A stretch of 64,000 bases of DNA from Candidatus Yanofskybacteria bacterium RIFCSPLOWO2_02_FULL_44_18 (GCA_001794755.1 MGKT01000008.1:11491-75490); one strand, 5' to 3'; numbered from the stretch's first letter, positions 1,802 to 19,014 are shown. The notes: generated by a model from the sequence alone, not told the origin. Numbers and translations: made by a program.

Positions 1802-2665
1802 ATGCATACTCCTGTTTTATTAAATGAGGTTTTGGATTATTTAAATCTTGCTTCCGGCAAGAAATTTATTGATTGCACATTAAACGGCGGGGGGCATACG
1901 AAAGCTGTTCTGGAAAAATTTTCGGGCGTGGAAATTTTGGGAATTGAATACGATCCGGTCATTGCCGCCCAAGTCTCCAAGGAACTGTCCGTCAAAGTTG
2001 TTAACGACTCGTATATAAATCTGCGCGCGATTGCGGAGGCCGGCAGTTTTTATCCCGATGCCGTATTATTCGATCTCGGTCTTTCTTCATGGCATTATGA
2101 ATCAAGCGGCCGCGGTTTCAGTTTCCAGAAAAATGAGCCCTTGGATATGCGTTTTAATCCCATGGCTAATTCCTTAACCGCGGCGGAAATAATCAACATG
2201 CAGCCGGAAAATGATATTTGCGAAATTCTTAAAGAATATGGCGAAGAGCAATTCGCGGAATCAATATCCAGGGCGATTATAAAAGCAAGGCAGATAAAGC
2301 CGATTCGAACGACTCTTGAATTGGCTGAAATTATATCCAACAGCGTTCCCGGCTGGTATAAGAAAAGAAAAATTAATCCGGCCACAAAAACATTCCAAGC
2401 GTTAAGGATTGCCGTCAATGATGAGTTGGAGAACGTAAAAAGGGGAGTAGCGGCGGCGATTGATGTTTTAAACCCCGGCGGCCGGCTGGTTGTCATTTCA
2501 TTTCAGGGTCTGGAGGACAAGATTGTCAGGGAAATATTCAAAGAAAAAGCAAAAGAGGGTATATTAAAATATGTCGTCAGAGGAACCATAAGGCCGACAT
2601 GGACCGAACAGCAATCCAATCCTCGTTCCCGATCGGCCAAAATGAAGGTGGCAGAAAAGACATAG
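1802..2665 (+). CDS. rsmH: 16S rRNA (cytosine1402-N4)-methyltransferase RsmH (MraW)
   Basis: Translation from the ATG at 1802 begins MHTPVLLNEVLDYL..., typical of RsmH, and contains the SAM-MTase body. The upstream in-frame extension to 1652 lies in a GC-rich structured leader and is probably not coding. Confidence 0.85.
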   Translation: MHTPVLLNEVLDYLNLASGKKFIDCTLNGGGHTKAVLEKFSGVEILGIEYDPVIAAQVSKELSVKVVNDSYINLRAIAEAGSFYPDAVLFDLGLSSWHYESSGRGFSFQKNEPLDMRFNPMANSLTAAEIINMQPENDICEILKEYGEEQFAESISRAIIKARQIKPIRTTLELAEIISNSVPGWYKKRKINPATKTFQALRIAVNDELENVKRGVAAAIDVLNPGGRLVVISFQGLEDKIVREIFKEKAKEGILKYVVRGTIRPTWTEQQSNPRSRSAKMKVAEKT

Positions 2666-2736
2666 GGCGGTTAGTTCAGTGGTAGAACGTCCGATTCACA
2701 TTCGGAAGGTCGCAGGTTCAATCCCTGCACCGCCCA
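2665..2736 (+). tRNA. tRNA-Val (anticodon CAC)
   Basis: Cloverleaf read by eye: acceptor GGGCGGT/ACCGCCC, D-arm GTTC-AGTGGTA-GAAC, anticodon stem TCCGA/TCGGA with loop TTCACAT, T-arm GCAGG-TTCAATC-CCTGC, discriminator A. No encoded CCA. Confidence 0.85.
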
Positions 2737-2790
2737 CTTGCGAAAATATAAATTCGTGGTATTGTTTATAAAGTTTTTTTGGGAGGACAA

Positions 2791-3075
2791 ATGAAGGTGA
2801 GACTTTACCCGAAATCGCCTGACCGGCTGATAAATGATAATGATTCGTGCCGCGGCTTCATGAGTGGGCTGATGCGCGATCATAATCTTTCGTTTGCTGA
2901 CGTTTCAAAGATTGATAATGCGAATCTCAAACAGGTGAACATGATTGGGAGTGAAGGAAAACCTATCCTGGAATCGTGGTGGCAAGTGATAAAAGATAAT
3001 CCCAATTGCATTCTGGTGCTGAATGTGTTTTTTACAACAATAATGTTATTTCTCATCATACTTCTCTTCATATAG
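2791..3075 (+). CDS. Small hypothetical membrane protein (94 aa)
   Basis: SD-like GGGAGGA at 2781-2787 before the ATG at 2791. Hydrophobic C-terminus. Ends at the terminator. Confidence 0.45.
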   Translation: MKVRLYPKSPDRLINDNDSCRGFMSGLMRDHNLSFADVSKIDNANLKQVNMIGSEGKPILESWWQVIKDNPNCILVLNVFFTTIMLFLIILLFI

Positions 3076-3098
3076 CGGCCATGGCCGCTTTTTGTTTC
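3075..3098 (+). terminator. Rho-independent terminator
   Basis: Perfect palindrome GCGGCCATGGCCGC followed by TTTTTGTTTC. Confidence 0.6.
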
Positions 3099-3148
3099 TA
3101 GTTATCCACATTGTATCTTCATAATCCATCTGATAATATGACTTTGAA

Positions 3149-3188
3149 GTGGAAAGAAGTGGGAGAGAGTGGATAATTTTGTGGATAA
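3149..3188 (+). promoter_or_regulatory. Putative MraZ operator: four direct GTGG repeats at ~10-bp periodicity
   Basis: GTGG at 3149, 3159, 3169 and 3181 (GTGGAAAG, GTGGGAGA, GTGGATAA, GTGGATAA), immediately upstream of the mraZ ATG at 3195. TTATCCACA (3102-3110) and its reverse complement TGTGGATAA (3180-3188) are DnaA-box-like 9-mers. A TAATAT -10-like hexamer lies at ~3133. Confidence 0.5.
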
Positions 3189-3194
3189 CTAAAT

Positions 3195-3629
3195 ATGTTA
3201 ATAGGCGAGTTTAAACACAACCTAGATGCCAAGAAAAGACTCGCCATACCTTCAAAACTCAGAAAAGAGCTTGGCGAAGGCGCGGTTCTAACCAGGGGAT
3301 TGGATAATTGTCTTTTTGTCTTTCCGTCTTCCGCTTGGAACGAGTTTACCGCCAAAGTCGGGAACTTATCTTTTGCCCAGCAAAGCGCAAGGGCATTCAG
3401 CCGATTGATGCTCTCTGGTGCAGTTGAAGTCGAATTTGATTCATTGGGCCGAATATTGATTCCGGATTATTTAAAAACGTACGCCGGCTTGAACAAAACG
3501 GCCATAATTACCGGCATATACAACCGTTTGGAAATATGGGATGAGCCCAAATGGAGTGCTTACAAGGAAAATATTGAAAAAAATTCAGACGCCATTGCCG
3601 AAAGATTGGGCGAGTTGGGCATAATGTAG
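3195..3629 (+). CDS. mraZ: Transcriptional regulator MraZ
   Basis: MLIGEFKHNLDAKKRLAIPSKLRKELG..., a duplicated SpoVT/AbrB-like MraZ fold, in a division/cell-wall (dcw) gene context. Confidence 0.9.
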   Translation: MLIGEFKHNLDAKKRLAIPSKLRKELGEGAVLTRGLDNCLFVFPSSAWNEFTAKVGNLSFAQQSARAFSRLMLSGAVEVEFDSLGRILIPDYLKTYAGLNKTAIITGIYNRLEIWDEPKWSAYKENIEKNSDAIAERLGELGIM

Positions 3630-3634
3630 CGTCC

Positions 3635-3710
3635 GGAAGGTGGTTAGCGAGGAGTTGGGCTTAACATGGTAGGGGGTACCTCAAAAAGCCGCCTCGCTAT
3701 TCACCTTTTG
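3635..3710 (+). other. Long imperfect inverted repeat/hairpin with trailing T-run between mraZ and the ftsL-like gene
   Basis: GGAAGGTGGTTAGCGAGG (3635-3652) pairs with CCTCGCTATTCACCTT (3692-3707) around a ~40-nt loop, followed by TTTTGG. Possible attenuator or processing structure. Confidence 0.4.
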
Positions 3711-7179: not shown

Positions 7180-7251
7180 GGCCTCATCGTCTAGCGGTTA
7201 GGACACGTGATTCTCATTCACGTAACAGGGGTTCGACTCCCCTTGAGGCTG
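7180..7251 (+). tRNA. tRNA-Glu (anticodon CTC)
   Basis: Acceptor GGCCTCA/TGAGGCT, D-arm GTCT-AGCGGTTA-GGAC, anticodon stem CGTGA/TCACG with loop TTCTCAT, 4-nt variable loop, T-arm AGGGG-TTCGACT-CCCCT, discriminator G. Confidence 0.85.
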
Positions 7252-8838
7252 CATTAGTGGATTTTTATCGTAGAGACGCTCATAATCCTTTTGTTTTACA
7301 ACGGTTTTACGAGGTTCTAGCCGTTTGTGTATCTTAGAAACTTCAGCAGATATGGTTTTCATTGGGAATAGCGATTTTTCTAAATCAATTTGCAGTATTC
7401 GGTCTTTTAGTAACAGGTTCTGACCAAGTGCCGATAAAATGCCTTTTCGAATTGCAATACTGCCGTTGTTGAATTTTCCAACCGCATCTTTAACGAATGC
7501 CAACATTTCATCAGCGACACTAAGCCATCTGTTTATTCGGTCGCCTGTATCACCAAGCAACTCCTCAAGTTGAGCCTTTTCCTTCTTTAACGGGGCCATT
7601 TTGGCGTTATACTCGTCATCTCCAATGAGTTGAGCGGCACGCATATCCATATAGCCATCAATCTTCTTTAGACAAAGCGTGTAACCTGCTTGCTGGGTCT
7701 TTAAGACAGCATTTCTGCTCCCAGCCTCTTTCTCATTCTCTTGCCGAAACCATTTCATAGCATAGGTTTGAAATTCAGGCGGTATCTGTAACTCCTCAAT
7801 CTTCTTATTGATTTGTTTCTTGAGCTCCGTAACTTCAATGGAGCCTTGGCTACAGGTAGGAGTTATTCTTTTTGAGCAGTGATAATAAACATAGTGATGG
7901 ACATTGCCATTATTTTGATGCTTCCACTTCTCTTCAATGACAATTGTGCCCTTGCACTCTCCGCATTTCATCATACCTGGAAAATCAAAAATATGATTTT
8001 TTGGTCTCGGCCGTCCTTTTCTGCCAAGTAGATATTGTATCTGGTCATATTCTTCTTCGGTAATCATCGGCTTATAGTTGCCCTTAATCCAATCTCCGCT
8101 TCCCATAGGATATTCAAAAGAACCATAGTAAAAAGGATTGCTAAAAATCTTATAGAGCGTGCTTCGGCCTATGGGTGTGCCTTGTCGTGTTTTGAACTTC
8201 CATTCTTTGGTTACTATCCTGAAAATCTCTACGACAGTGTAGTTCCCCGTGAGCATCAAATCAAACATTCGCCTGACCGTATCAAAGCGTTCGGGGTCAA
8301 CGAGGTTTTTCTTAGCTCCTCGTTCTGTATATTTATCGCTCATATAACCAATAGGGCCACGGCCAGGGAATACGCCAGCTTGTAATCGGGCCCGAAGCCC
8401 TCGTTTTACATCCTCGCCTTTATTATCATTCTCTAATTTGGCCTGACTACAGAATAGGTTGAGTAAGAATTTATCGTTAGGGGTGTTACGAAATACTTGG
8501 CTTGGCGTTCGCACTTCCACAAGCTTTTCAATATCAAAGAGATAGATAATCTTGCCTGTATCAATTGAGTTTCTTGAAATACGGCTGGCATTCCAGACCA
8601 ATAGGGCATTAGCTTCACCTTTCTCAATCTTCTCAATCATCTTATTAAAAATAGGTCGGCCTGGATGCTTAGCAGAATGGGACTCCTCTAAAGTAGCAAC
8701 GACAGAGAGCTTATCTTTTTTTGCTACGTCATCCAGTTCTCTAATTTGAGAATCAATTGAAGCTACCTGTCTATCTTCTTGTTCCGAAGACTTACGAGGG
8801 TAGATAAAGTATTTAATTTTTGTATTATCGTTTTTCAT
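7198..8838 (-). CDS. Large serine recombinase (resolvase domain + recombinase domain + zinc ribbon)
   Basis: N-terminal YPRKSSEQEDRQ (YxRxSSxxQ catalytic serine motif). Resolvase-like core. C-terminal CGECKG...C...C zinc ribbon. The last ~17 codons overlap tRNA-Glu on the opposite strand. Confidence 0.85.
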   Translation of the reverse strand: MKNDNTKIKYFIYPRKSSEQEDRQVASIDSQIRELDDVAKKDKLSVVATLEESHSAKHPGRPIFNKMIEKIEKGEANALLVWNASRISRNSIDTGKIIYLFDIEKLVEVRTPSQVFRNTPNDKFLLNLFCSQAKLENDNKGEDVKRGLRARLQAGVFPGRGPIGYMSDKYTERGAKKNLVDPERFDTVRRMFDLMLTGNYTVVEIFRIVTKEWKFKTRQGTPIGRSTLYKIFSNPFYYGSFEYPMGSGDWIKGNYKPMITEEEYDQIQYLLGRKGRPRPKNHIFDFPGMMKCGECKGTIVIEEKWKHQNNGNVHHYVYYHCSKRITPTCSQGSIEVTELKKQINKKIEELQIPPEFQTYAMKWFRQENEKEAGSRNAVLKTQQAGYTLCLKKIDGYMDMRAAQLIGDDEYNAKMAPLKKEKAQLEELLGDTGDRINRWLSVADEMLAFVKDAVGKFNNGSIAIRKGILSALGQNLLLKDRILQIDLEKSLFPMKTISAEVSKIHKRLEPRKTVVKQKDYERLYDKNPLMQPQGESNPCYVNENHVS

Positions 8839-9004
8839 AAACTAAAGGGGACAGTCTGGTTCCCCAATTCAGTTCTCCGAAGATTACCTCATTGGCAGAC
8901 TACCCCCTTTAGGGGACGAGGTAATAAAAAACGGAGCTATAAATTGGGGAACAAGTCCATTATACCATTTTGGTTAGGGTTGCCAATCATACTTTTCAAG
9001 CTAT

Positions 9005-10129
9005 TCAATCTTTTGATTTATTAATCAATTCTGCAATTTGCTCAATATCTTTTGGGCCTATGACATATTTAATGTCTTTCTTCTGGCCACCATAATCAAT
9101 GTTTCTTATTATTTCTGTCTGTCTGTTCTCTTCAATTTTTCCGTAACCATAAGAACCAAAAGTTGTTCCAACATTTTCGTGCCCCAAGCTCTGACTAAAA
9201 GCTTTTTTCTCTTCTTCAGTTAAGGGTAGTTTTGATATTTCCTTAACCAATAAATGTCTTAGGGCGTGCGGATGATAGTGTTTAACCCCAGCTTGCTCAA
9301 ATCTTTTCTCAAATATCTTTCTTGGAGAAGACGAACTTTTCCAGAAAATCGGTTCAACTTCACCCGTATTATAGTAGCTCATATTTTCTTTACCGTTTTC
9401 AATTTTGGTTGCTGGAAATATGGGGTTCTCTGGCTTAAACCCTTTTTTATTCTCCAGATAATCAAACCACTTAAGAAAATAGTCCAGAGGCTCTTTGTAT
9501 GAAAATGGAATTAAAGACGAAACAATCCTTTTACGAAATTTTGTTTCTACTCCTAACGCTGGGTCTTGGTCTATAATTAAATTACTCTTATCAAAACATC
9601 TCATACTAAGGGATTTAACAGCCGAGATTCTTGCCCCAGTTAGCAGGATTAGGGAAATTAAAGCTTTATCCCTTTTTTCAATTTCAGAGTCGCCCTTGAT
9701 GTTCTCAATTACAGTTTTAACTTCTTCTAAGCTTGGGAACCCTACACTTTTGGGCTGGGTGGCAATTTTGACTTCAGCCCTTGATAGCCTTAGATAATCT
9801 ACGGCTGTTTGGTTAATTTTTGACTTAAAACCAGGCTGTCTGGATAACCAGTCAAAAAATACTTTCAAATACCGTAACATATCATAGCTGTAAGATAGGC
9901 TTATGGTTTCTTCAGAATTAGCCTTCTTCTTGGTCTTGAGCCAATCCTTGAACGATTCCGCCAGTGTTTGATTAAAACTACCTAAATCGGCTTTATGCGA
10001 AAAATCTTCCCAAAGCCAAATTGCCTTTTCATAACACTCAATTGACTTTCCAGAAAATCCTTTAGAGTTTTTGAGATAGTCATAAAACCTCCTTTTTGTC
10101 TGTTCGTTTTTGTAGGTTGTTGAAGTCAT
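9005..10129 (-). CDS. Tyrosine recombinase / phage-type integrase
   Basis: GARISAV (box I Arg), HPHALRHL (HxxR) and GHENVGTTFGSYGY (catalytic Tyr region). Confidence 0.8.
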   Translation of the reverse strand: MTSTTYKNEQTKRRFYDYLKNSKGFSGKSIECYEKAIWLWEDFSHKADLGSFNQTLAESFKDWLKTKKKANSEETISLSYSYDMLRYLKVFFDWLSRQPGFKSKINQTAVDYLRLSRAEVKIATQPKSVGFPSLEEVKTVIENIKGDSEIEKRDKALISLILLTGARISAVKSLSMRCFDKSNLIIDQDPALGVETKFRKRIVSSLIPFSYKEPLDYFLKWFDYLENKKGFKPENPIFPATKIENGKENMSYYNTGEVEPIFWKSSSSPRKIFEKRFEQAGVKHYHPHALRHLLVKEISKLPLTEEEKKAFSQSLGHENVGTTFGSYGYGKIEENRQTEIIRNIDYGGQKKDIKYVIGPKDIEQIAELINKSKD

Positions 10130-10193
10130 ATTTTTACTTTTAGTTAGTTAATGGTATTAAATGGGACATTTACGAGTAGTGATAAATAACCTA

Positions 10194-10595
10194 TCAATCT
10201 TGTTGGGATACCCCTATAAATCTATTGACCCGTGTATTGCACACCTCACAATTGCCCACCTTTTTATACTGGTCCGAATTGCTTTTACCTATTTTTTTAC
10301 CTGTTTTTATGGTCTCCTCGCTTCCTGCTTTTGCCCTAACTGATTTGTGGCATTTGAAGCAAAAAAATTGACCCTCATTTAGGCCGATTCTTCTCTTGGC
10401 CCGTTTCTTATTAAGGAAATCAATTAAATCTGCCCCAATAACTAATATCGGATTTACGTTTTGTTCAATCGGTCTCAACCCTTCTTTTTTTAACCAGCAA
10501 CGACAAGTTTTTCTATCTATTTTCAAAAGAGAGACTATCTGGGTCATAGAATAACTTCTTTTGGATTTAATTAACCGTATGTTATGTTTGGCCAT
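10194..10595 (-). CDS. DNA-binding protein with HTH plus C-terminal C4 zinc ribbon (possible recombination directionality or regulatory factor)
   Basis: SYSMTQIVSLLKIDRKTCRCWLKK HTH-like segment. CFKCH...CEVCN zinc ribbon. Lies downstream of the integrase on the same strand. Confidence 0.45.
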   Translation of the reverse strand: MAKHNIRLIKSKRSYSMTQIVSLLKIDRKTCRCWLKKEGLRPIEQNVNPILVIGADLIDFLNKKRAKRRIGLNEGQFFCFKCHKSVRAKAGSEETIKTGKKIGKSNSDQYKKVGNCEVCNTRVNRFIGVSQQD

Positions 10596-10609
10596 ATTCC
10601 ACAGCTTCT

Positions 10610-10798
10610 TTAATGATTTTGTTGGTCTTCAGGTTCAGATTTTGTTATTGGGCCAGGTTCAGATTCCCCATATACAAATTTGTAAAGGTTGACCAAGTTA
10701 TTGGCACGAAAAGAAGCCTCTGCGTCTGTTAGCTGGACCTTGAACCTTTGCAGGTATAGTTTCTTGAACTCTTCAATTGCTTCTTTTGGTAGCATCAT
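10610..10798 (-). CDS. Small hypothetical protein (62 aa), paralog of the 17816..18001 ORF
   Basis: Shares M-L-x-KEA-[IL]-EEFK-x-[IL]-Y ... D-x-[ED]-A ... A-x-NL-[VL]-N ... Y with the 61-aa ORF at 17816. Confidence 0.45.
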   Translation of the reverse strand: MMLPKEAIEEFKKLYLQRFKVQLTDAEASFRANNLVNLYKFVYGESEPGPITKSEPEDQQNH

Positions 10799-10941
10799 TC
10801 AATTATGGCAGGGTAGCTACTTCAAAGTTTGGGGGCAAAAATTTGCCCCTTTACGGTCTGTTAAATTGCTGATAATACAATGCTAAACAAAAACACTCCT
10901 TTTTATTGGAGCGTTTTTTGTTGCCTTTTTAGCACCACTGG

Positions 10942-12234
10942 CTATTTTTCTATAATCACAAGTTGGATGCCATTCTTTCTTTCTATTTTGGCTGGGAATC
11001 CTTTGTCTTTTAGTATCCTGTTGATTCCTTTTATGATGCCAAAAAACCTGTTTTTAGCAGTTTCATTGCGACTAAAGGTAGTAGCGTTTTCTGTTATATT
11101 TAGTTGAACAGCGAGAAACTCTGGTGGATGGGTTTTGCCTTTAACTTTTTCTACGCCATTCTTAATATACCGCCTTTCGTCCCACAATTTTTTGAACAAT
11201 AAAATTCTATCTTTTTCTCCCCTCGTTCCTCTTTGAAATTTATGAATAATATCTCCAAAACCTATGATACCCGTTTGGCGATTAAATGACATTTTCTGTT
11301 TTATGTTGTCGTTAGCTATCGGCTCCGATTTTTCTTCCGCCTCAATCTTGGATAGTAAGAAGTTGTGCAATCGGGGTATGGATTTTTTGAACTTATCCAG
11401 ATTGAGGGCTAATAAATTTTTATCTTCTTCGCCATCACGAACGAGCGATGGGTGGTATTGGTTTTGTTTCTTAATCTCTGCTATATCACTTGCCATTATG
11501 GAAACTCTTACTCTTCTTTTGGTTTCTTGTAAGCTACAATTCTCAACATATTTTTCTGGGTCAGTGTCTATGTTCCTATAGTTTTTCCACGCATCGTGAA
11601 AATTTAGAACCTTATCTACAATTCCCCAGATTTCCTCACTTTCCAGCTCTTTGATTTTGTTCCACTGTTGCCTTCTAATTGCTATTGTTTTTGAGAAAAC
11701 GAAATTCCCATAAGTGTTGCTATCTGCACCGCTATGTTTTCTATACTCTTTGTTGGAAACAAGAAACTCATTCAGAGCTTCTCTCTGTCCCATTTCTGAC
11801 ACAACAGAAGCGGCAGAAAAAAGTAAAGACGACCGAGCACCAGAGTCAAAATTGTTGTCTGTATATAACTGAAGTTTTCCGCTTTCATAATCTTTAATTT
11901 CTTTTAGAGCATATGTTAGTCGGCTTGATTGTATGTGTTTATTTTCAGTAATTTCAAAAAATCTTTTCTTTGCTGACTTCATCTCTTTTATTGCCTTATT
12001 TTCCAATTGGTCTAACAGTGCATATTCAATATCTCGGCCCTTGAGAGTTTCCTGCATTACCGACACTAAAAATGTAATACTTTTTATATAATCCAAGTAG
12101 TCATTAAGCCCCAAAAAAAAGTTATACTGATTGGTTTCATCAACAAACAATCCGTAGTGTCGCTGGAGAGCTTCTATTGTTGAGTTAGTTAATAACATAG
12201 TTGTCTGTGAGGTTAATTTTTTACAATCTACCAA
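10942..12234 (-). CDS. Hypothetical protein (430 aa), orphan island cargo
   Basis: Long AT-rich ORF transcribed divergently from the Mod gene. No recognisable motifs. Confidence 0.55.
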   Translation of the reverse strand: MVDCKKLTSQTTMLLTNSTIEALQRHYGLFVDETNQYNFFLGLNDYLDYIKSITFLVSVMQETLKGRDIEYALLDQLENKAIKEMKSAKKRFFEITENKHIQSSRLTYALKEIKDYESGKLQLYTDNNFDSGARSSLLFSAASVVSEMGQREALNEFLVSNKEYRKHSGADSNTYGNFVFSKTIAIRRQQWNKIKELESEEIWGIVDKVLNFHDAWKNYRNIDTDPEKYVENCSLQETKRRVRVSIMASDIAEIKKQNQYHPSLVRDGEEDKNLLALNLDKFKKSIPRLHNFLLSKIEAEEKSEPIANDNIKQKMSFNRQTGIIGFGDIIHKFQRGTRGEKDRILLFKKLWDERRYIKNGVEKVKGKTHPPEFLAVQLNITENATTFSRNETAKNRFFGIIKGINRILKDKGFPAKIERKNGIQLVIIEK

Positions 12235-12483
12235 TTTTTTCTTAATTTCTCAATGTTGTCCCCTAAAACACATCAAGGGCTTTATTCTTAGCTCAATTTA
12301 GGGTATCTTATTTATGTTCACCTATAACGACTTTTCCTAAAGGGAGGTCATCCTTTTTTATCCAATTATGGGTAGAGATGGGTGGCCGAGTTCCGTAATT
12401 GGACTCCCTTTGGGAAGTTCCGTTATGGGTGAACACTCGGCTGCCCTTTTTTGTTTAGGGTGATTGAGGCATAACGTTCACCT

Positions 12484-14418
12484 ATGCCCCGAAAGCGGAA
12501 AAATGACAATAAGGAAGAGTTAAAAATACAAAGCCAATCAAATGGTGATTTTGTAAATCCAGAACCTGAAGAAGTAGAAATTCCCGTTCAAGAAGAGTTT
12601 TATCAGATGCCGACAAGATTCGGCAATGTGCCAGTAGATAAAGCTCCTCTTGGCTGGGATGAGCAGAGAAGATTTGAAAAAGTTTATCCCAGAGTATCTC
12701 TTCCGTTTCAGCAAATAGAAAGGGTTTCTTTTGGGCATTCAGAGCTTGAACCCAACAAGCTGTTTTTTGGCGACAACTTACACATAATGCGTCTGTTGCC
12801 ATCTAAATCCATTGACCTTATTTATATTGACCCACCATTTTTCTCTGGCAAGAATTACAACATTTTATATGGCGACAAAAACGAACTTCGTTCTTTTCAG
12901 GATATTTGGGAAGGTGGTATGCCTGGCTACCTAATTTGGCTCAACGCTCGTCTTTATGAGATGAAGCGATTACTTAAAGATACCGGCTCTATCTATGTTC
13001 ACCTGGATTGGCACGCAAGTCATTATGTAAAGGTAGAAATGGATAAAATCTTTGGGTATGAAAATTTCTTAAATGATATTTCCTGGTGTTATAGAGGGTA
13101 TGAACACAATAAAAGCTATTTTAATAGAAAACACGATTCTATACTATTTTATGCTAAAAATATAAAAAGTAAGAGTGCTTTTAATTACGATAAAATAAGA
13201 GAGGAGTTATCAGATGTTACAAAAAAGAAATATAAACATAAGGATGAAAACGGTTTTTATCGTATTCGTGGAAGAAATATAAAAGGTAGCCCCGTTAAAC
13301 AACAGACCGACCTAACTCACGAACAAGAAGAAAAATATTCAGGATTAACATATAGACAATATCTAACAGAGGGCACCTTACCAAGAGATTGGTTTGTTTT
13401 AGATTTTATCAATCAAGCTTCAAATGAAAAGATTGGTTATCCCACACAAAAACCAGAAGAATTATTAGAAAAATTGATATTAGCAGCATCAAATGATGGT
13501 GATGTGGTCGCAGATTTTTTCTGTGGTGGTGGCACAACACCAGTTACTGCTCAAGAACTTGGACGCAAATGGATTGCTTCTGATATATCTCGTATTGCTG
13601 TCGCACTTACAGCAGACAGGATATCTGTAGAGGCAGAAGAAAATAAGGACAGAAAAGTGCAGACCACTCTTTCTGGAATTAGCGACATATCAGATTTTAT
13701 TATTGAGCACTGGGGAATATACGAGATTCAAAAACTTAGTAAGATGAAATCGGCTCAATTCAGAAAGTTTATCATTGAAGCATATAATGGCCGTCCCGAC
13801 ACAACCTCTGACAATATACACGGGTATAAAAATGGCGAACCTCTTTTTGTCGGAGACCCGGAACCAGATGACAGAATTTCCAAAGAAGAAGTTGTTGCTT
13901 TTGCTAAGATAATTCTCACCAAAAAGGGTATACATAGAGGCACAATGCTTGGTTGGGCATTTAGTCCAGATGCCAGGGTTGTCGCTGAAAAATTAGTGGC
14001 CAGAGAAGGCATTACTTTGGACTTCGTTAAACTCAATTTAATTCCAGTAGATTCTCCAGAATTTAAGAGCCACATAACCGATAAACACCCCTCTTATGTT
14101 GATTTGGTTTCTTTTATTTTACCGCCTTTAATAAGGTTTGGTTTTAACAAAACTGGCGATTTGAAATACGAATTTGATGTTACCGAGTCAACTTCTATGA
14201 ACTCCGGCAGTAAGATAATCAATGTTCAGTGGGACTTTGATTATAGGAACAGGTTTAGTTCAACTCGTGGCTACTCATTTCTGCGAGGCAAAAAGAACGA
14301 ATCTTTGTTGAAAGTTGAATATACTTTTCCATCGGCAGGAAAAAGAAAAATAGCTTGCCGAGTCCAAGACGATAAGGGTGGCGAGGCAACACTCATAAAA
14401 GAGATTGGGATTGAATAA
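12484..14418 (+). CDS. Type III-like restriction-modification Mod subunit (beta-class N6A/N4C DNA methyltransferase)
   Basis: Motif IV DPPF (LIYIDPPFFSG) precedes motif I FxGxG (ADFFCGGGTT), the beta-class order, with TQKP in between. The stop is coupled to the Res start (TAA-at-ATG). Confidence 0.8.
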   Translation: MPRKRKNDNKEELKIQSQSNGDFVNPEPEEVEIPVQEEFYQMPTRFGNVPVDKAPLGWDEQRRFEKVYPRVSLPFQQIERVSFGHSELEPNKLFFGDNLHIMRLLPSKSIDLIYIDPPFFSGKNYNILYGDKNELRSFQDIWEGGMPGYLIWLNARLYEMKRLLKDTGSIYVHLDWHASHYVKVEMDKIFGYENFLNDISWCYRGYEHNKSYFNRKHDSILFYAKNIKSKSAFNYDKIREELSDVTKKKYKHKDENGFYRIRGRNIKGSPVKQQTDLTHEQEEKYSGLTYRQYLTEGTLPRDWFVLDFINQASNEKIGYPTQKPEELLEKLILAASNDGDVVADFFCGGGTTPVTAQELGRKWIASDISRIAVALTADRISVEAEENKDRKVQTTLSGISDISDFIIEHWGIYEIQKLSKMKSAQFRKFIIEAYNGRPDTTSDNIHGYKNGEPLFVGDPEPDDRISKEEVVAFAKIILTKKGIHRGTMLGWAFSPDARVVAEKLVAREGITLDFVKLNLIPVDSPEFKSHITDKHPSYVDLVSFILPPLIRFGFNKTGDLKYEFDVTESTSMNSGSKIINVQWDFDYRNRFSSTRGYSFLRGKKNESLLKVEYTFPSAGKRKIACRVQDDKGGEATLIKEIGIE

Positions 14419-14420
14419 AT

Positions 14421-16409
14421 ATGTTTAATTCTTTCTTACCTTACGAAAAGAAGTTTCAAGATTGGATAAACAACCGTTTTGAACACGAGAAAATGAAGCC
14501 CGAAACGAAGGAGTTTATTTTGCATATCTTAAATCCAGAAAGAGAAAGAAAACTCTGGCGAAATCAGCAGGAAGGAATTTTAAGAGCTATCTATGCCTAT
14601 GAAGTTTTAGGTAAGAAAAGTATATTACTCAACATAGTTACTGGTGGGGGTAAAACGGCAATAATCGCAGGTGTGATTGCTTGGTTGAGAATGGCCCATC
14701 AAATAAGACATTTTATTATTCTTAATCCCAATGTCATTGTCCGAGACAGATTACAGCAGGACTTTACCAAAGCCAAGATATTCAGGGACTTTAAGTTTTT
14801 CCCAGCCGTTTATTCTAATCTGTTAGATGACCTTGATTTACATATTCTTGGCGATAAACAAGCACCGCAAGGAATGCTTGAGTCAGGTGTTGTTCTGGGT
14901 AATATACAACAGCTTTACAGCAGAGGCGGTAAGGTAAGCCGCAATCTGGCCTATATTATGAACTTTCTCGGCGACTTGGCAGTTTTCAATGACGAAGCTC
15001 ATAATACGCCAGCACAAGAATATACAAATATCCTGATGCAATTAGCCAAGAAATCTAAGTTCCGTTTGGATACAACGGCAACGCCTGACAGGGCTGACAA
15101 TCAAAATCCCGATTCTGAAATGATTTACGAATACGGCATTCAAGATGCCCTGACCGATGACTTAATAAAATCGGTTGTCGTTTATCAGCCAGATATTAAA
15201 AGAGTTGAGCTTACTTACACGGATGTTGATACTGGCAAACAAGCCAAAGTTGAAGAAATTGATTGGGATGAGATAGACAGAAAAGGCATCAGTGCAACTC
15301 AATGGGTTACTGATGACAAGCCGTTAAAACAGCAAATCAAAATTGCTCTGGGCAGATTGGCAGAGCAAAAAGAGCGTGCCAAAGGACGCTATAAGCCAGT
15401 TCTGTTTGTGGTAGCTGTTTGTATCAGAGATGCCAAAAATGTCGTTAGTGTAATGGAGAAGAAATTTAACCTGAAGACCCTTTTGGTTACCGAGGAATCA
15501 GAAGAAGCACATCGCAGGGAAGCAGCCCACATAGGCCATCTGGATAGCCCCTACGATGCCGTTGTGAGCGTTTTAATGCTCCGTGAGGGCTGGGATGTGC
15601 CAGAGGTGGGGATTATTATGCTTTTACGCAAGTTCTCATCAAAGGTCTATGGCCAGCAGGTTATTGGCCGAGGATTGAGAAAGGTTATCAGAGACGATGG
15701 CGAAAGAGAGATACTGGCTGTTGTAGACCATCCAAAACTTGAACACGGCTGGCTTTGGAAGTTGGTTGGGGCAAAGATTAAAAAAGATGTCTCGGTAGAC
15801 GATAAATTTGATGTTGAAGAAGACCTGCCTGAAATACAACAGAAACAGGAACTTATTGACCCAGAAAAATTGATTGAAGTTCCAGAAATTGAAGGTGAAA
15901 TAGAACCTGATTTTGAAACAATTTTTGAAGGGTTAAAAGAAGTTCCAGTTACCGAAGATTGGCAGAAAATACTTGATGCAATCAACTACCCAAGAAATAA
16001 AGTTGAGATAACAGGTCTCAAATTACGGGGCATTAGAAAAATTGATTTAAGCGGCAAGCAGTATGTTGAGTATGAGCCGACAGAAGAAGACGAAGAAAAA
16101 CCAGCAGAGAAAGAGCAATCTGAAACCACATATTCCATAGATGACCTGCGAGAAGAATTAAAAGATGAGGTATTAGAACTAAGTTCCGAACTGCTTTTTA
16201 TGATGGGCTTCGGCTCAATCTACAAAGAGCTTATTTACAATACGGTTATGAACCATATTGATAAAAAACTTTTTAACGGCAAAACGCTTGGCCTGGCTGA
16301 ACAAAAGGACTTGGAATTTGCTTTGTATAAATTATCAGAAATAAGACGGGTATTTATGAAGCCTGGCTTAGTGCCAAGTATTATCCGCTATCCTAATGCA
16401 ACAGAGTGA
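14421..16409 (+). CDS. Type III-like Res subunit, SF2 helicase/ATPase part
   Basis: Walker A VTGGGKTAI, DEAH box FNDEAHN, TATP, and motif VI QQVIGRGLRK. Acidic C-terminal tail. No nuclease motif within this ORF. Confidence 0.75.
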   Translation: MFNSFLPYEKKFQDWINNRFEHEKMKPETKEFILHILNPERERKLWRNQQEGILRAIYAYEVLGKKSILLNIVTGGGKTAIIAGVIAWLRMAHQIRHFIILNPNVIVRDRLQQDFTKAKIFRDFKFFPAVYSNLLDDLDLHILGDKQAPQGMLESGVVLGNIQQLYSRGGKVSRNLAYIMNFLGDLAVFNDEAHNTPAQEYTNILMQLAKKSKFRLDTTATPDRADNQNPDSEMIYEYGIQDALTDDLIKSVVVYQPDIKRVELTYTDVDTGKQAKVEEIDWDEIDRKGISATQWVTDDKPLKQQIKIALGRLAEQKERAKGRYKPVLFVVAVCIRDAKNVVSVMEKKFNLKTLLVTEESEEAHRREAAHIGHLDSPYDAVVSVLMLREGWDVPEVGIIMLLRKFSSKVYGQQVIGRGLRKVIRDDGEREILAVVDHPKLEHGWLWKLVGAKIKKDVSVDDKFDVEEDLPEIQQKQELIDPEKLIEVPEIEGEIEPDFETIFEGLKEVPVTEDWQKILDAINYPRNKVEITGLKLRGIRKIDLSGKQYVEYEPTEEDEEKPAEKEQSETTYSIDDLREELKDEVLELSSELLFMMGFGSIYKELIYNTVMNHIDKKLFNGKTLGLAEQKDLEFALYKLSEIRRVFMKPGLVPSIIRYPNATE

Positions 16410-16746
16410 AAGAGGTGTATTTGAACATCCAACTAAAAGCCCATTCTCTTTGGAAAAATATGACTCTCGCTGGGAACGAGAGTATATGGAAGAATTGGAA
16501 ATGTATTCGGATATTGCTAAATGGACTAAAAACCATAGAATCAGAATACCCTATGTAGATGACGCTGGATATAAAAAGTATTTTGAACCTGATTTTTTGA
16601 TTGAAAAGATTGACGGAACAAAAGAAATACACGAAGTTAAAGGTGGCCACCTAATGAACCGAGAAGTTGAACTAAAAATGAATGCCGCTAAGTTGTTTTG
16701 CGAAGCCCGTAAAATGACCTTTCGGCTTATCACCAAATCAAGATGA
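16396..16746 (+). CDS. PD-(D/E)xK endonuclease domain protein (candidate detached Res nuclease domain)
   Basis: YFEPDFLIEKIDGTKEIHEVKG gives the D ... E-x-K signature. Overlaps the helicase ORF by 14 nt in the +1 frame. No SD. The nuclease frame is open only from 16372. Confidence 0.6.
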   Translation: MQQSERGVFEHPTKSPFSLEKYDSRWEREYMEELEMYSDIAKWTKNHRIRIPYVDDAGYKKYFEPDFLIEKIDGTKEIHEVKGGHLMNREVELKMNAAKLFCEARKMTFRLITKSR

Positions 16747-16788
16747 GATGACTTCAAGAGAGCGTTAGAAAAATTAAGGCGATTTATT

Positions 16789-17043
16789 ATGAAAACTTTT
16801 GCTGAAAAACTAAAGGAACACACAAACTATTGTAATAAAATAATGAAGCAAACCAGTAAGTTTATCTTGTTATCAAAAGAAGCTAAAAAAGAGGGTAATG
16901 ATAAAAATTATGTTGAGTTCATGGAGCAAGCTGAAAAATCCATAAAGTTAGCTGACGAAACTATGCGAGAGTTTGAAACAAATCACGGTAAAGAGTTGAA
17001 GATTTTAGAAGAATGGTATCAAAATAAATATAATGAGCAGTGA
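16789..17043 (+). CDS. Hypothetical coiled-coil protein (84 aa)
   Basis: Short Lys/Glu-rich ORF within the island. Confidence 0.4.
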   Translation: MKTFAEKLKEHTNYCNKIMKQTSKFILLSKEAKKEGNDKNYVEFMEQAEKSIKLADETMREFETNHGKELKILEEWYQNKYNEQ

Positions 17044-17056
17044 AGTGAGGTAAAAT

Positions 17057-17803
17057 ATGAACTGGCTAAAACAAAACTGGATAAAAATATGGATTGTCGC
17101 AATAATTGCTGGTGTTTTATTAGTTGGCTGGCTTTTGCTTAACTCAAAAAACGACACTCTTTCTTTCAAATGCCCTGACGAATATACAAATTTAGATGAG
17201 TATGTAGAAATAGTCGCTATGTGGGCCAGTGATTATCTTAAAGAAAACCCAGGAGCGACAAATGAAGAAGTTGCCGATGCAAGAGTTGTTTTTTTGAAAG
17301 AACAGGGGTGCGAAAACCACTTTCCAGGACTTGATAGTAAAATGGTTAGCGAGTTAGAAGAGGAAGCTAATAAGCAGATAGACACTGAAAAACTAATGGC
17401 GGGAATAAAATATGCCGAATCTCAAAGAAAAGATGAAGATGCCGATTCTTTAATTAAGTCTACAAATGAAAAAGAGCTTTACGATAATCACTACATTAAA
17501 CACCTCCGCACGGCTTTTAACGGCTATCTGGATGGCACAAATAACGGAGTAGAAGAAGGCACATCAGAAAAGAGCGAATTAGAAAGTGGTCTTAGGTGTG
17601 GTTTAGATAGTTTTGATAAAAATTACTTCAAGAGCGAGTTTAATGTTATCAAGACAGAAAAGAATGACTATGGCGGAATAGTGGCTTATATTGCCTTTTT
17701 GAACAATCACGACAGAGTATTTTGGACTTGGGTTTATCAATATGCTGGTGGCGAATTTACCCTTAGAGGATTTTGCGAATATGCCGCACTAATTGAGCAA
17801 TAA
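17057..17803 (+). CDS. Hypothetical membrane-anchored protein (248 aa)
   Basis: N-terminal TM WIKIWIVAIIAGVLLVGWLLL followed by a soluble domain. RBS GAGGTAAAAT before the ATG. Confidence 0.5.
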   Translation: MNWLKQNWIKIWIVAIIAGVLLVGWLLLNSKNDTLSFKCPDEYTNLDEYVEIVAMWASDYLKENPGATNEEVADARVVFLKEQGCENHFPGLDSKMVSELEEEANKQIDTEKLMAGIKYAESQRKDEDADSLIKSTNEKELYDNHYIKHLRTAFNGYLDGTNNGVEEGTSEKSELESGLRCGLDSFDKNYFKSEFNVIKTEKNDYGGIVAYIAFLNNHDRVFWTWVYQYAGGEFTLRGFCEYAALIEQ

Positions 17804-17815
17804 AATAATTTTAAT

Positions 17816-18001
17816 ATGTTATCAAAAGAAGCCCTTGAAGAATTCAAGGCAATTTACAAAAAAGAATATAACGAGGATATTTCAGACGAAGATGCCCTTG
17901 AAATGGCCGTGAACCTTTTGAATATGATGAACGCAATTTATCGGCCAATCCCAAAGAAATGGCTTGATGAATTAGAAGAAAAAGATGGCTTGGTTAAGTA
18001 A
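17816..18001 (+). CDS. Small hypothetical protein (61 aa), paralog of the 10610..10798 ORF
   Basis: MLSKEALEEFKAIYKKEYNEDISDEDALEMAVNLLNMMNAIY aligns with the 62-aa ORF on the minus strand. Confidence 0.45.
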   Translation: MLSKEALEEFKAIYKKEYNEDISDEDALEMAVNLLNMMNAIYRPIPKKWLDELEEKDGLVK

Positions 18002-18033
18002 AATTTGCTATAACTTACTTGGAATAGCGAGAG

Positions 18034-19014
18034 TTGGTATTCTTTGGCATTTTGCTAAAGACAGCATTGTTCAATAAGTCGGACTTGTTCCGTAAAAAGC
18101 AATTACTGGCTTACGGGTCTACCAAGAGCTTGGCCGAGCATCATTGGAGCAACTATGAGGGTCAAGGAGTGAACGAAGACCAACACAAGCGACGAAATCT
18201 TGTTTTCCTTCAAGTAGCTCGCTACTCCCACAAAGAACTCCCTTACGGGAGCTTTTTGTTGAGAAAGATAACAAAAACTGATAAATTGAGAATTATGAGC
18301 CAGGGCATTGCATATAACATTTATTGCGACGAATCCAGAGTAGAAAACCCAGAGTCCGACAAGATGGTAGTCGGGGCTATTTCGTTACCTCGTAATATCA
18401 AAGAAAAAACCACTAAAGAGCTAAAAAACATTTACAAGAAACATAACTTTTCAGGTGAATTAAAATGGACAAAAGTCAATAAAAATTATTCAAGCTTTTA
18501 CAAAGGCATAATGGATTTTGTCTTAAAGACCGAAGACCTAAACTTTCGGTGCATAATCGTGGATAAGAGTAAGGTTGATTATTCAAAATATCACGAGAAT
18601 GATACGGAATTGGCGTTCTTTAAGTTTTACTATCTGATGTTGCGGAGCAGGCTCTTAGATAATAATAGTTACTACATTTTTCTTGATAAAAAGCCCACCA
18701 GAGATAAAAATAGAGCAAGAGCACTGCTATCATTTTTAAGTTCTTATGTATTACTTCGTCGCAAAGAATGTAACATAGAGCATCTACAAGCTTATGACTC
18801 AAAAGATAATATACACATACAGCTCGCTGATTTTTTAACAGGATTAGTTGCTTATGGCGTTAACACAGAAGCTGGAAATAATATAAAAATGCAGATGGTG
18901 AATTATTTTAAGGATGTTTTCTTAATAGAAGACTTGCTCAAAACAACGCCATTAACCAGTAACAAGATTAATATACTTGCCTGGAATCCAAATTTTTATG
19001 AAAAAGGTCGTTGA
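18034..19014 (+). CDS. DUF3800-family protein (alternative shorter start ATG at 18295)
   Basis: YNIYCDES (the N-terminal DES motif) and the C-terminal QLADFLTG motif characteristic of DUF3800. The 87 in-frame codons upstream (TTG at 18034) may be an extension or a leader. Confidence 0.65.
   Translation: MVFFGILLKTALFNKSDLFRKKQLLAYGSTKSLAEHHWSNYEGQGVNEDQHKRRNLVFLQVARYSHKELPYGSFLLRKITKTDKLRIMSQGIAYNIYCDESRVENPESDKMVVGAISLPRNIKEKTTKELKNIYKKHNFSGELKWTKVNKNYSSFYKGIMDFVLKTEDLNFRCIIVDKSKVDYSKYHENDTELAFFKFYYLMLRSRLLDNNSYYIFLDKKPTRDKNRARALLSFLSSYVLLRRKECNIEHLQAYDSKDNIHIQLADFLTGLVAYGVNTEAGNNIKMQMVNYFKDVFLIEDLLKTTPLTSNKINILAWNPNFYEKGR

Follow-up and report, generated by a model that had tools for sequence, protein, structure and literature searches.

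A Type III-like restriction-modification operon from Candidatus Yanofskybacteria with a restriction subunit probably divided into motor and nuclease genes

Analysis of a 64,000-nucleotide (nt) window from Candidatus Yanofskybacteria bacterium RIFCSPLOWO2_02_FULL_44_18 (GCA_001794755.1, MGKT01000008.1:11491-75490; the window is this whole stretch, and positions are counted from its first letter) led to an operon of three genes on the plus strand. These encode a beta-class amino-methyltransferase (Mod), a superfamily 2 (SF2) ATPase of 662 amino acids (aa) and a small PD-(D/E)xK nuclease of 116 aa (Table 1). Most likely this is a conserved three-gene Type III-like restriction-modification (R-M) operon, in which the restriction subunit Res has been fissioned into a motor and a nuclease subunit, and we infer that the two assemble and act in restriction. 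The genes are tightly packed, with 2 nt between the stop codon of mod and the start of the helicase gene (TAAatATG). The nuclease gene begins in the +1 frame, with an ATG at 16396, and shares its first 14 nt with the helicase gene, whose TGA occupies 16407-16409. The nuclease frame is closed by a TAG at 16369-16371, so that it is open from 16372. No purine-rich Shine-Dalgarno (SD) sequence was seen upstream of the nuclease ATG in the window copy (ccgctatcctaATG). In the deposited annotation (locus tags A3G02_00400, A3G02_00405 and A3G02_00410) the small open reading frame (ORF) is given as a gene of its own adjoining the helicase gene. A first-pass annotation, made by a model from the DNA alone, had described the same layout, and its account of a helicase devoid of nuclease motifs and of a 116-aa ORF that overlaps it by 14 nt in the +1 frame, has no SD, is open from 16372 and bears a PD-(D/E)xK signature held throughout.

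The methyltransferase carries motif IV (DPPF) at residue 116 (nt 12829-12840) and motif I (FCGGG, of the FxGxG form) at residue 346 (nt 13519-13533), in agreement with the beta-class assignment proposed in the first-pass annotation. It matches the Pfam family N6_N4_Mtase (PF01555) with an E-value of 4.5e-43, and its best relative in the PDB by sequence is CcrM (1e-22), followed by the Type III Mods Mbo45V, 6k0w and EcoP15I (1e-13 to 1e-16). An alignment of 51 homologues showed that the flanking catalytic blocks are well conserved (column conservation 0.8-0.9), while the stretch of residues ~205-300 between motifs IV and I falls to 0.05-0.5 and is rich in indels. Judging from its position, this stretch is the probable target-recognition region. 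The C-terminal domain of ~245 aa (residues 400-644) is moderately conserved (0.5-0.7) and has no family assignment, its sole family match being a sub-threshold one to PKD_4 (E-value = 0.063); contact with the motor is one possibility for its role. Nearly all related loci have a Mod homologue upstream of their helicase gene.

The motor subunit harbors the motifs of an SF2 helicase, namely GGGKT at residue 75 (14643-14657), DEAH at 191 (14991-15002), TATP at 219 and QVIGRGLR at 413 (15657-15680). It scores above threshold against Pfam ResIII (2e-16) and has a partial match of 64 bits, in the motif VI region, to the NCBIfam model of the BPTD_3080 restriction endonuclease (NF046055). No Pfam family matched its last 222 residues (441-662). 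An AlphaFold2 (AF2) model of moderate quality (mean predicted local distance difference test, pLDDT, 69), predicted as a single chain like all the models used here, presents two RecA-like domains, a disordered acidic stretch at 467-570 and a small helical bundle at 573-656. The Foldseek matches of this model were SF2 proteins of a general kind, EcoP15I Res and a fragment of HsdR among them, and showed no particular closeness to EcoP15I Res; a PDB sequence search gave weak matches only (7clg, RadD and EcoP15I Res). The PADLOC model REase_III (PDLC03648) aligned colinearly with both proteins, with E-values of 3.8e-16 for the helicase and 8.7e-4 for the nuclease. No match to the helicase was found by tblastn in plasmid and phage collections.

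The small ORF carries the pattern PDF...EIHEVKG, in which nt 16588-16641 encode the catalytic PD66...E80-V-K82; the third acidic residue is probably E27. It belongs by its best Pfam match to the TnsA-like endonuclease N family (PF08722; 35 bits, E-value = 2.2e-8, gathering threshold 26.5), with a weak match to RE_endonuc (PF19778; 0.012). It also matches positions 849-941 of the 970 positions of NF046055 (1e-10, 40 bits). As the helicase ORF matches this model too, helicase and nuclease together line up in order along a single Res-type protein. The AF2 model of the nuclease, built on an alignment of 30 homologues, reached a pLDDT of 92, and its best PDB folds are those of TnsA (1t0f and 1f1z; template modelling score 0.73, normalised to the query); a PDB search by sequence found nothing for this protein. 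Twelve positions, E20, W26, E27, W43, I51, P65, D66, F67, E80, K82, K94 and R105, are invariant in the 30 sequences. The protein is a bare catalytic core with an E...PD...ExK active site and without a DNA-binding domain. The catalytic core of TnsA has the pattern E...D...(Q/E)xK, and the window protein shares this core type. Unlike TnsA (~270 aa), it comprises the N-terminal catalytic domain only. The domain itself is widespread, as its profile gave 4899 matches (E-value up to 0.001) in a representative library, mostly small or 200-460-aa proteins; among the best 150 of these no fused Res was added beyond one 1147-aa protein.

For the two overlapping ORFs the first-pass annotation had offered two readings, either a recently frameshifted res gene, inactivated or phase-variable, or a genuine restriction subunit of two polypeptides. 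We were able to compare them by following the two-gene form across genomes. A conceptual helicase-nuclease fusion of 775 aa was searched against 5.8 billion proteins, and all of the 120 matches listed were 501-675 aa long, with 48-100% identity and at most 86% query cover, confined to the helicase part. Homologues of the small ORF stand alone in 44 of 44 cases (84-128 aa, down to 40% identity, those of 84-88 aa being calls from an internal Met), and several lie on the same contigs as helicase matches. Together with the Pfam match, these homologues place the small ORF well outside what chance would give. A scan with the helicase alignment, over one genome per GTDB species, yielded 80 loci and contig look-ups another six; Mod, helicase and nuclease were placed in them by tblastn and the ORFs were rebuilt. 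Split loci, including the window, number 68 (L002 and L003, both counted, are one pair carrying the same genes), and all present the order mod, helicase, nuclease, with a nuclease ATG in every one. The other 67 helicases are 35-83% identical to that of the window, and within this identity range none of the loci is fused. Their hosts belong to Chloroflexota, Verrucomicrobiota, Planctomycetota, Armatimonadota, Bacteroidota, Patescibacteria, Nitrospirota, Nitrospinota, Pseudomonadota and Actinomycetota, and archaeal split loci occur in Nitrosotalea and Woesearchaeota.

Selection was estimated from the window and its close Patescibacteria relatives L084, L085 and L086 (69-83% identity). For the nuclease, non-synonymous differences per site (pN) are 0.14-0.18 against 0.8-1.1 for synonymous ones (pS); for the helicase the non-synonymous differences are 0.10-0.22, with saturated synonymous sites. 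Both genes are under comparable purifying selection. The 116-aa protein also occurs in identical form in 38 contigs and under three NCBI accessions from separate Yanofskybacteria assemblies, which argues against an assembly indel. Neither at the junction nor across the operon were tandem repeats, simple sequence repeats, homopolymers, or dinucleotide or slippery runs detected, so that the search for homopolymer or slippery sites proposed in the first-pass annotation came back empty. With the split kept in 68 loci, both halves intact and under selection, and no repeats, the reading as a recently frameshifted, inactivated or phase-variable gene is refuted, and that of a two-polypeptide restriction subunit is supported.

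The geometry of the junction is variable. Counted from the final base of the helicase stop codon to the nuclease ATG, the offset is -13 in 27 loci (the 14-nt overlap of the window), -10 in 21 (an 11-nt overlap), -3 in seven (ATGA), +2 in seven (TAAnATG, a 1-nt gap) and -7 in two (an 8-nt overlap), while offsets of -16, -37, 0 and +105 are represented by one locus each. Both alternative frames are thus used across the 68 loci. In the three close relatives named above the overlaps are 11, 17 and 14 nt, respectively; junction indels have therefore occurred while the stop and the ATG were both kept. The conservation of the 11- and 14-nt overlaps can be attributed to dual coding, because the helicase stop codon is embedded in the conserved nuclease N-terminus M-x-x-S-(E/K)-(R/H)-G. 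A stop in the nuclease frame precedes the ATG by one codon in many loci, and in 13 a strong SD core (AGGAGG, GGAGG or AGGAG) is located upstream of it. For instance, L020 has AGGAGG 6 nt upstream of the ATG, L013, L015 and L037 have GGAGG 5-6 nt upstream, and L029 has AGGAG. Such homologues, with a separate nuclease and its own ribosome-binding site, are what the first-pass annotation itself had named as telling against a frameshift.

Several loci deviate from the common layout. Between mod and the helicase gene, L010 encodes an HD-domain protein together with a weak SocA/Panacea-like match (1862-3699; E-value = 0.0024, below the Pfam cutoff), and L029 a Schlafen AlbA_2/HATPase_c_4 protein (2343-3707). 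These unrelated genes indicate that the operon tolerates the insertion of cargo at this place. In L046, L047, L052, L060, L064, L069, L071 and L073 the helicase is apparently disrupted, the nuclease truncated or its ATG missing at the expected place; the nuclease of L046 has 42 aa, and L052 has no nuclease ATG where one is expected. These may be decaying copies or errors in metagenome-assembled genomes, and in divergent ones the tblastn match may merely stop short of the helicase C-terminus.

Fused counterparts were met only at greater distance. In eight distant loci (L074-L081) helicase and nuclease lie in a single ORF of 847-912 aa, with a motor ~28% identical to that of the window and a Mod homologue upstream. 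These proteins have Pfam ResIII, RE_endonuc and TnsA-like domains, and L074, L078 and L080 reach 280-292 bits against the BPTD_3080 model, under its cutoff of 800 bits. Profile comparison with hhalign placed helicase residues 11-427 on fused residues 31-491 (E-value = 7e-47) and nuclease residues 9-106 on fused residues 717-815 (E-value = 1e-13), with the PDF...E-x-KG motifs aligned. The two alignments are colinear, which puts the split precisely where the nuclease domain starts and answers the question, raised in the first-pass annotation, of where the junction falls in Res homologues. The segments between motor and nuclease are similar in length (~235 residues in the split form and ~225 in the fused one), and no significant similarity was found between helicase residues 430-662 and fused residues 492-716 (hhalign E-value 0.4-0.85). 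On these comparisons, one old fission within the Type III-like Res lineage would be the simplest history.

Canonical Type III enzymes are Mod2Res1 complexes, in which the ATP-dependent cut requires two inversely oriented unmethylated sites and is made ~25-27 bp away, and methylation is on one strand. The operon resembles the EcoP1I and EcoP15I systems in the order mod then res, in a beta-class Mod with its variable region between motifs IV and I, and in an SF2 DEAH motor of the ResIII type followed by a PD-(D/E)xK nuclease. It differs from them in that its Res consists of two polypeptides (662 + 116 aa) instead of one of ~970 aa, and in the extra conserved C-terminal domain of Mod. The label Type III-like given in the first-pass annotation therefore stands as far as gene and domain order go, which is how the class is delimited here after PMC8259958, and does not extend to the single Res polypeptide or to similarity with EcoP15I, which is marginal. 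It is reasonable to keep the label on the grounds of gene and domain order, without filing the operon in the canonical EcoP15I-type family.

By homology, the fused Res proteins related to BPTD_3080 (L074-L081) are the nearest relatives, sharing colinear domains, the PDF...E-x-KG motif and an upstream Mod homologue, although they are single polypeptides with a distant motor and a linker that cannot be aligned. With 64 bits for the helicase and 40 for the nuclease against an equivalog cutoff of 800 bits, the window proteins are related to the NF046055 family and lie outside it, as do the fused relatives L074, L078 and L080. For the layout of subunits, the nearest precedent by analogy is offered by CglI and NgoAVII. 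These comprise M, R and H proteins, of which the helicase-like H and the nuclease R have to assemble as R2H2 to cleave DNA (PMC4267653, PMC5737866). In CglI, site recognition is a function of R, which joins a PLD-family nuclease to a B3-like DNA-binding domain, and H has DEAD and Z1 domains (PMC5737866). The likeness lies in the three genes and in an SF2 helicase-like ATPase and a nuclease on separate polypeptides, and no homology is implied: scans with Pfam and PADLOC found no PLD, B3 or Z1 domain in the window proteins, and the bare nuclease of the window, unlike R of CglI, is without a DNA-binding domain, which presumably leaves recognition to Mod. No description of a split Type III Res or of BPTD_3080 was found in the literature, which is weak evidence given that coverage was partial and did not include REBASE.

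A mechanism can be proposed for the operon. Mod would recognise and methylate an asymmetric target through its variable central region, and the motor would bind Mod and use ATP to drive a Type III-style switch or sliding, or translocation. Ribosomes that finish the helicase at its stop, 11 nt past the nuclease ATG, would reinitiate and make the nuclease; such termination-reinitiation coupling would account for the missing SD in the window copy and would match nuclease synthesis to that of the motor. Once made, the small protein would bind the motor non-covalently, perhaps through the helical bundle at 573-656, and the docked pair would rebuild a Res-like helicase-nuclease that cuts unmethylated DNA. 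In a variant that we regard as rather unlikely, the 116-aa nuclease would be a dissociable, trans-acting subunit, and the cleavage logic of this clade would differ from that of Type III. In one such scheme, nuclease subunits might have to await the meeting of two motor complexes before being recruited or dimerised; in another, Mod and motor might patrol or methylate DNA without the nuclease, its dosage being set by translational coupling. If true, this variant would set the clade apart as a class of its own among ATP-dependent restriction enzymes, with members in bacteria and archaea.

Several observations weigh against the interpretation as a Type III-like system with a divided Res. EcoP15I Res matches the helicase with an E-value of only 2e-3 by sequence and ranks 23rd by fold, and the NCBIfam type III Res model PRK15483 gives 25 bits against a cutoff of 564. 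In PADLOC, Mod scores slightly higher on the Type II model (MTase_II, 6e-53) than on the Type III one (MTase_III, 2e-43). Helicase residues 428-662 cannot be aligned with the fused relatives, so the docking surface suggested above is only a guess, and efficient translation of the nuclease in the window copy, which is without an SD, rests on the assumed coupling. Six of the 80 scanned loci were flagged for a disrupted helicase, with no tblastn match reaching the helicase C-terminus. Finally, the related locus L001 (4814-8300, on a 987-kb contig) has a helicase identical to P0038 and a Mod of 395 aa, and no nuclease ORF follows downstream. A second contig with the same helicase carries a Mod of at least 566 aa and a 115-aa nuclease; L001 has either decayed or been assembled as a chimera.

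Part of this evidence would suit a defence or DNA-processing system that is not classical methylation-protected restriction, for example one with another trigger or one in which the methylase is needed for activity. The weak similarity to characterised Type III enzymes and the unexplained conserved C-terminal domain of Mod point in this direction, as does the atypical division of labour in some Type III systems (PMC8259958). We nevertheless consider it improbable, as a Type III-like R-M system would be expected to have this gene order, domain order and variable centre of Mod, and the fused relatives match restriction-endonuclease models. Still less probable is that the small ORF encodes an independent nuclease, such as a TnsA-type remnant, a Vsr-like nickase or a separate effector, that merely adjoins a helicase-methylase pair. 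Its best Pfam and PDB matches are indeed to TnsA, thousands of proteins have the domain in other architectures, and the locus lies within an integrase island. This would leave unexplained the strict synteny and tight coupling to the helicase in 68 loci and the alignment of the small protein with the C-terminal domain of the fused Res relatives and with the C-terminal part of the BPTD_3080 model. Moreover, it lacks the TnsA C-terminal domain, and neither tnsB or tnsC genes nor a transposon context were found nearby, the nuclease gene being flanked by the helicase gene and by small unknown ORFs.

A further possibility considered was that ribosomes undergo programmed +1 frameshifting within the 14-nt overlap, which would then be a recoding site, and make a fused helicase-nuclease, possibly beside the separate products, since 48 of the 68 loci, across phyla, overlap by 11 or 14 nt in the +1 frame and the window copy has no SD. 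It is very unlikely given the variety of junctions and the stops beside the ATG: other loci use the +2 frame (ATGA) or 1-nt, 11-nt or stop-containing 105-nt gaps, all with an ATG, and in many loci a stop one codon before it leaves few codons for a shift. In addition, no conserved slippery or rare-codon motif was seen at the junction, and the dual coding of the nuclease N-terminus accounts for the conserved overlap. Least credible is a recent break of one gene into the two ORFs (a pseudogene, a phase-variable gene or an assembly indel). Their colinearity with one NCBIfam Res model, the overlap in different frames without an SD and the single indel within 16372-16409 that would join them are as such a break would have it. 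Against it, no fused form occurs among the 120 listed homologues or, down to 35% identity, among the 68 split loci; the ATG is always kept whatever the junction; purifying selection acts on the nuclease, whose synonymous sites are saturated; repeats and homopolymers are absent; and the same sequence stands in 38 contigs and three assemblies.

The operon is established in a low-GC stretch of ~11 kb (~9000-20000), with 36-38% GC against 43-48% in the flanks. An integrase gene and a helix-turn-helix (HTH) gene form the left end of this island, with a 62-aa gene at its edge (Table 1), and the same three genes also accompany the R-M module in L084 and L085. It follows that the system travels as cargo of an integrative element in Patescibacteria. 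No att-type direct repeats of 16 nt or longer were found to bound the island.

Table 1. Positions of the operon, its parts and neighbouring features in the window
Feature	Position	Strand	Description
mod	12484-14418	+	644 aa, beta-class amino-methyltransferase
Motor gene of the proposed split Res	14421-16409	+	662 aa, SF2 ATPase without nuclease domain
Nuclease gene of the proposed split Res	16396-16746	+	116 aa, minimal TnsA-like PD-(D/E)xK domain
Helicase/nuclease overlap	16396-16409	+	14 nt, ATGCAACAGAGTGA; proposed fission junction and probable translational-coupling site
Mod hypervariable central stretch	13096-13383	+	residues ~205-300, alignment of 51 homologues
Integrase gene	9005-10129	-	left end of island
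HTH gene	10194-10595	-	left end of island
62-aa gene			left edge of island
tRNA-Glu	7180-7252		
430-aa ORF	10942-12234	-	upstream of mod, divergent
Imperfect hairpin	12316-12452	+	~125 nt, then T6; between the 430-aa ORF and mod
PDC-M04A homologue	18034-19014	+	DUF3800 protein, directly downstream of the operon
PDC-M04B homologue	18977-19456	+	159-aa ORF, overlapping the preceding one

Other features of the island were also annotated. The DUF3800 protein encoded directly downstream of the operon corresponds to PADLOC PDC-M04A (4e-59) and the ORF overlapping it to PDC-M04B (9e-12), and this pair is a putative second defence module of the island. The 430-aa ORF divergent from mod had no Pfam, NCBIfam or PADLOC match and no counterpart in the related loci. 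For the hairpin between this ORF and mod, the minimum free energy of the RNA of 12300-12483 is -83 kcal/mol (z = -8.8 against shuffles), and no Rfam family matched it; it could be a repeat resembling a miniature inverted-repeat transposable element, an operator or the terminator of an unannotated transcript.

The split-Res form of Type III-like R-M is widespread and previously unnamed, and it does not represent a new principle. Overlapping ORFs of this clade resemble frameshifted res pseudogenes, and seeing the split as conserved avoids calling such systems dead. Their proteins go under generic names such as 'DEAD/DEAH box helicase' and 'TnsA endonuclease N-terminal domain-containing protein', or 'hypothetical protein' in this genome, and recognising the split Res lets R-M and defence finders count these systems. 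The natural separation of motor and nuclease, which parallels CglI with a Type III domain set, also provides a ready system for studying how ATPase switching leads to nuclease activation in Type III-like enzymes. From an evolutionary point of view, it would be a clean and datable gene fission at a domain boundary, kept across many phyla and both prokaryotic domains, and found here on an integrase island of a reduced-genome bacterium of the Patescibacteria (candidate phyla radiation, CPR).

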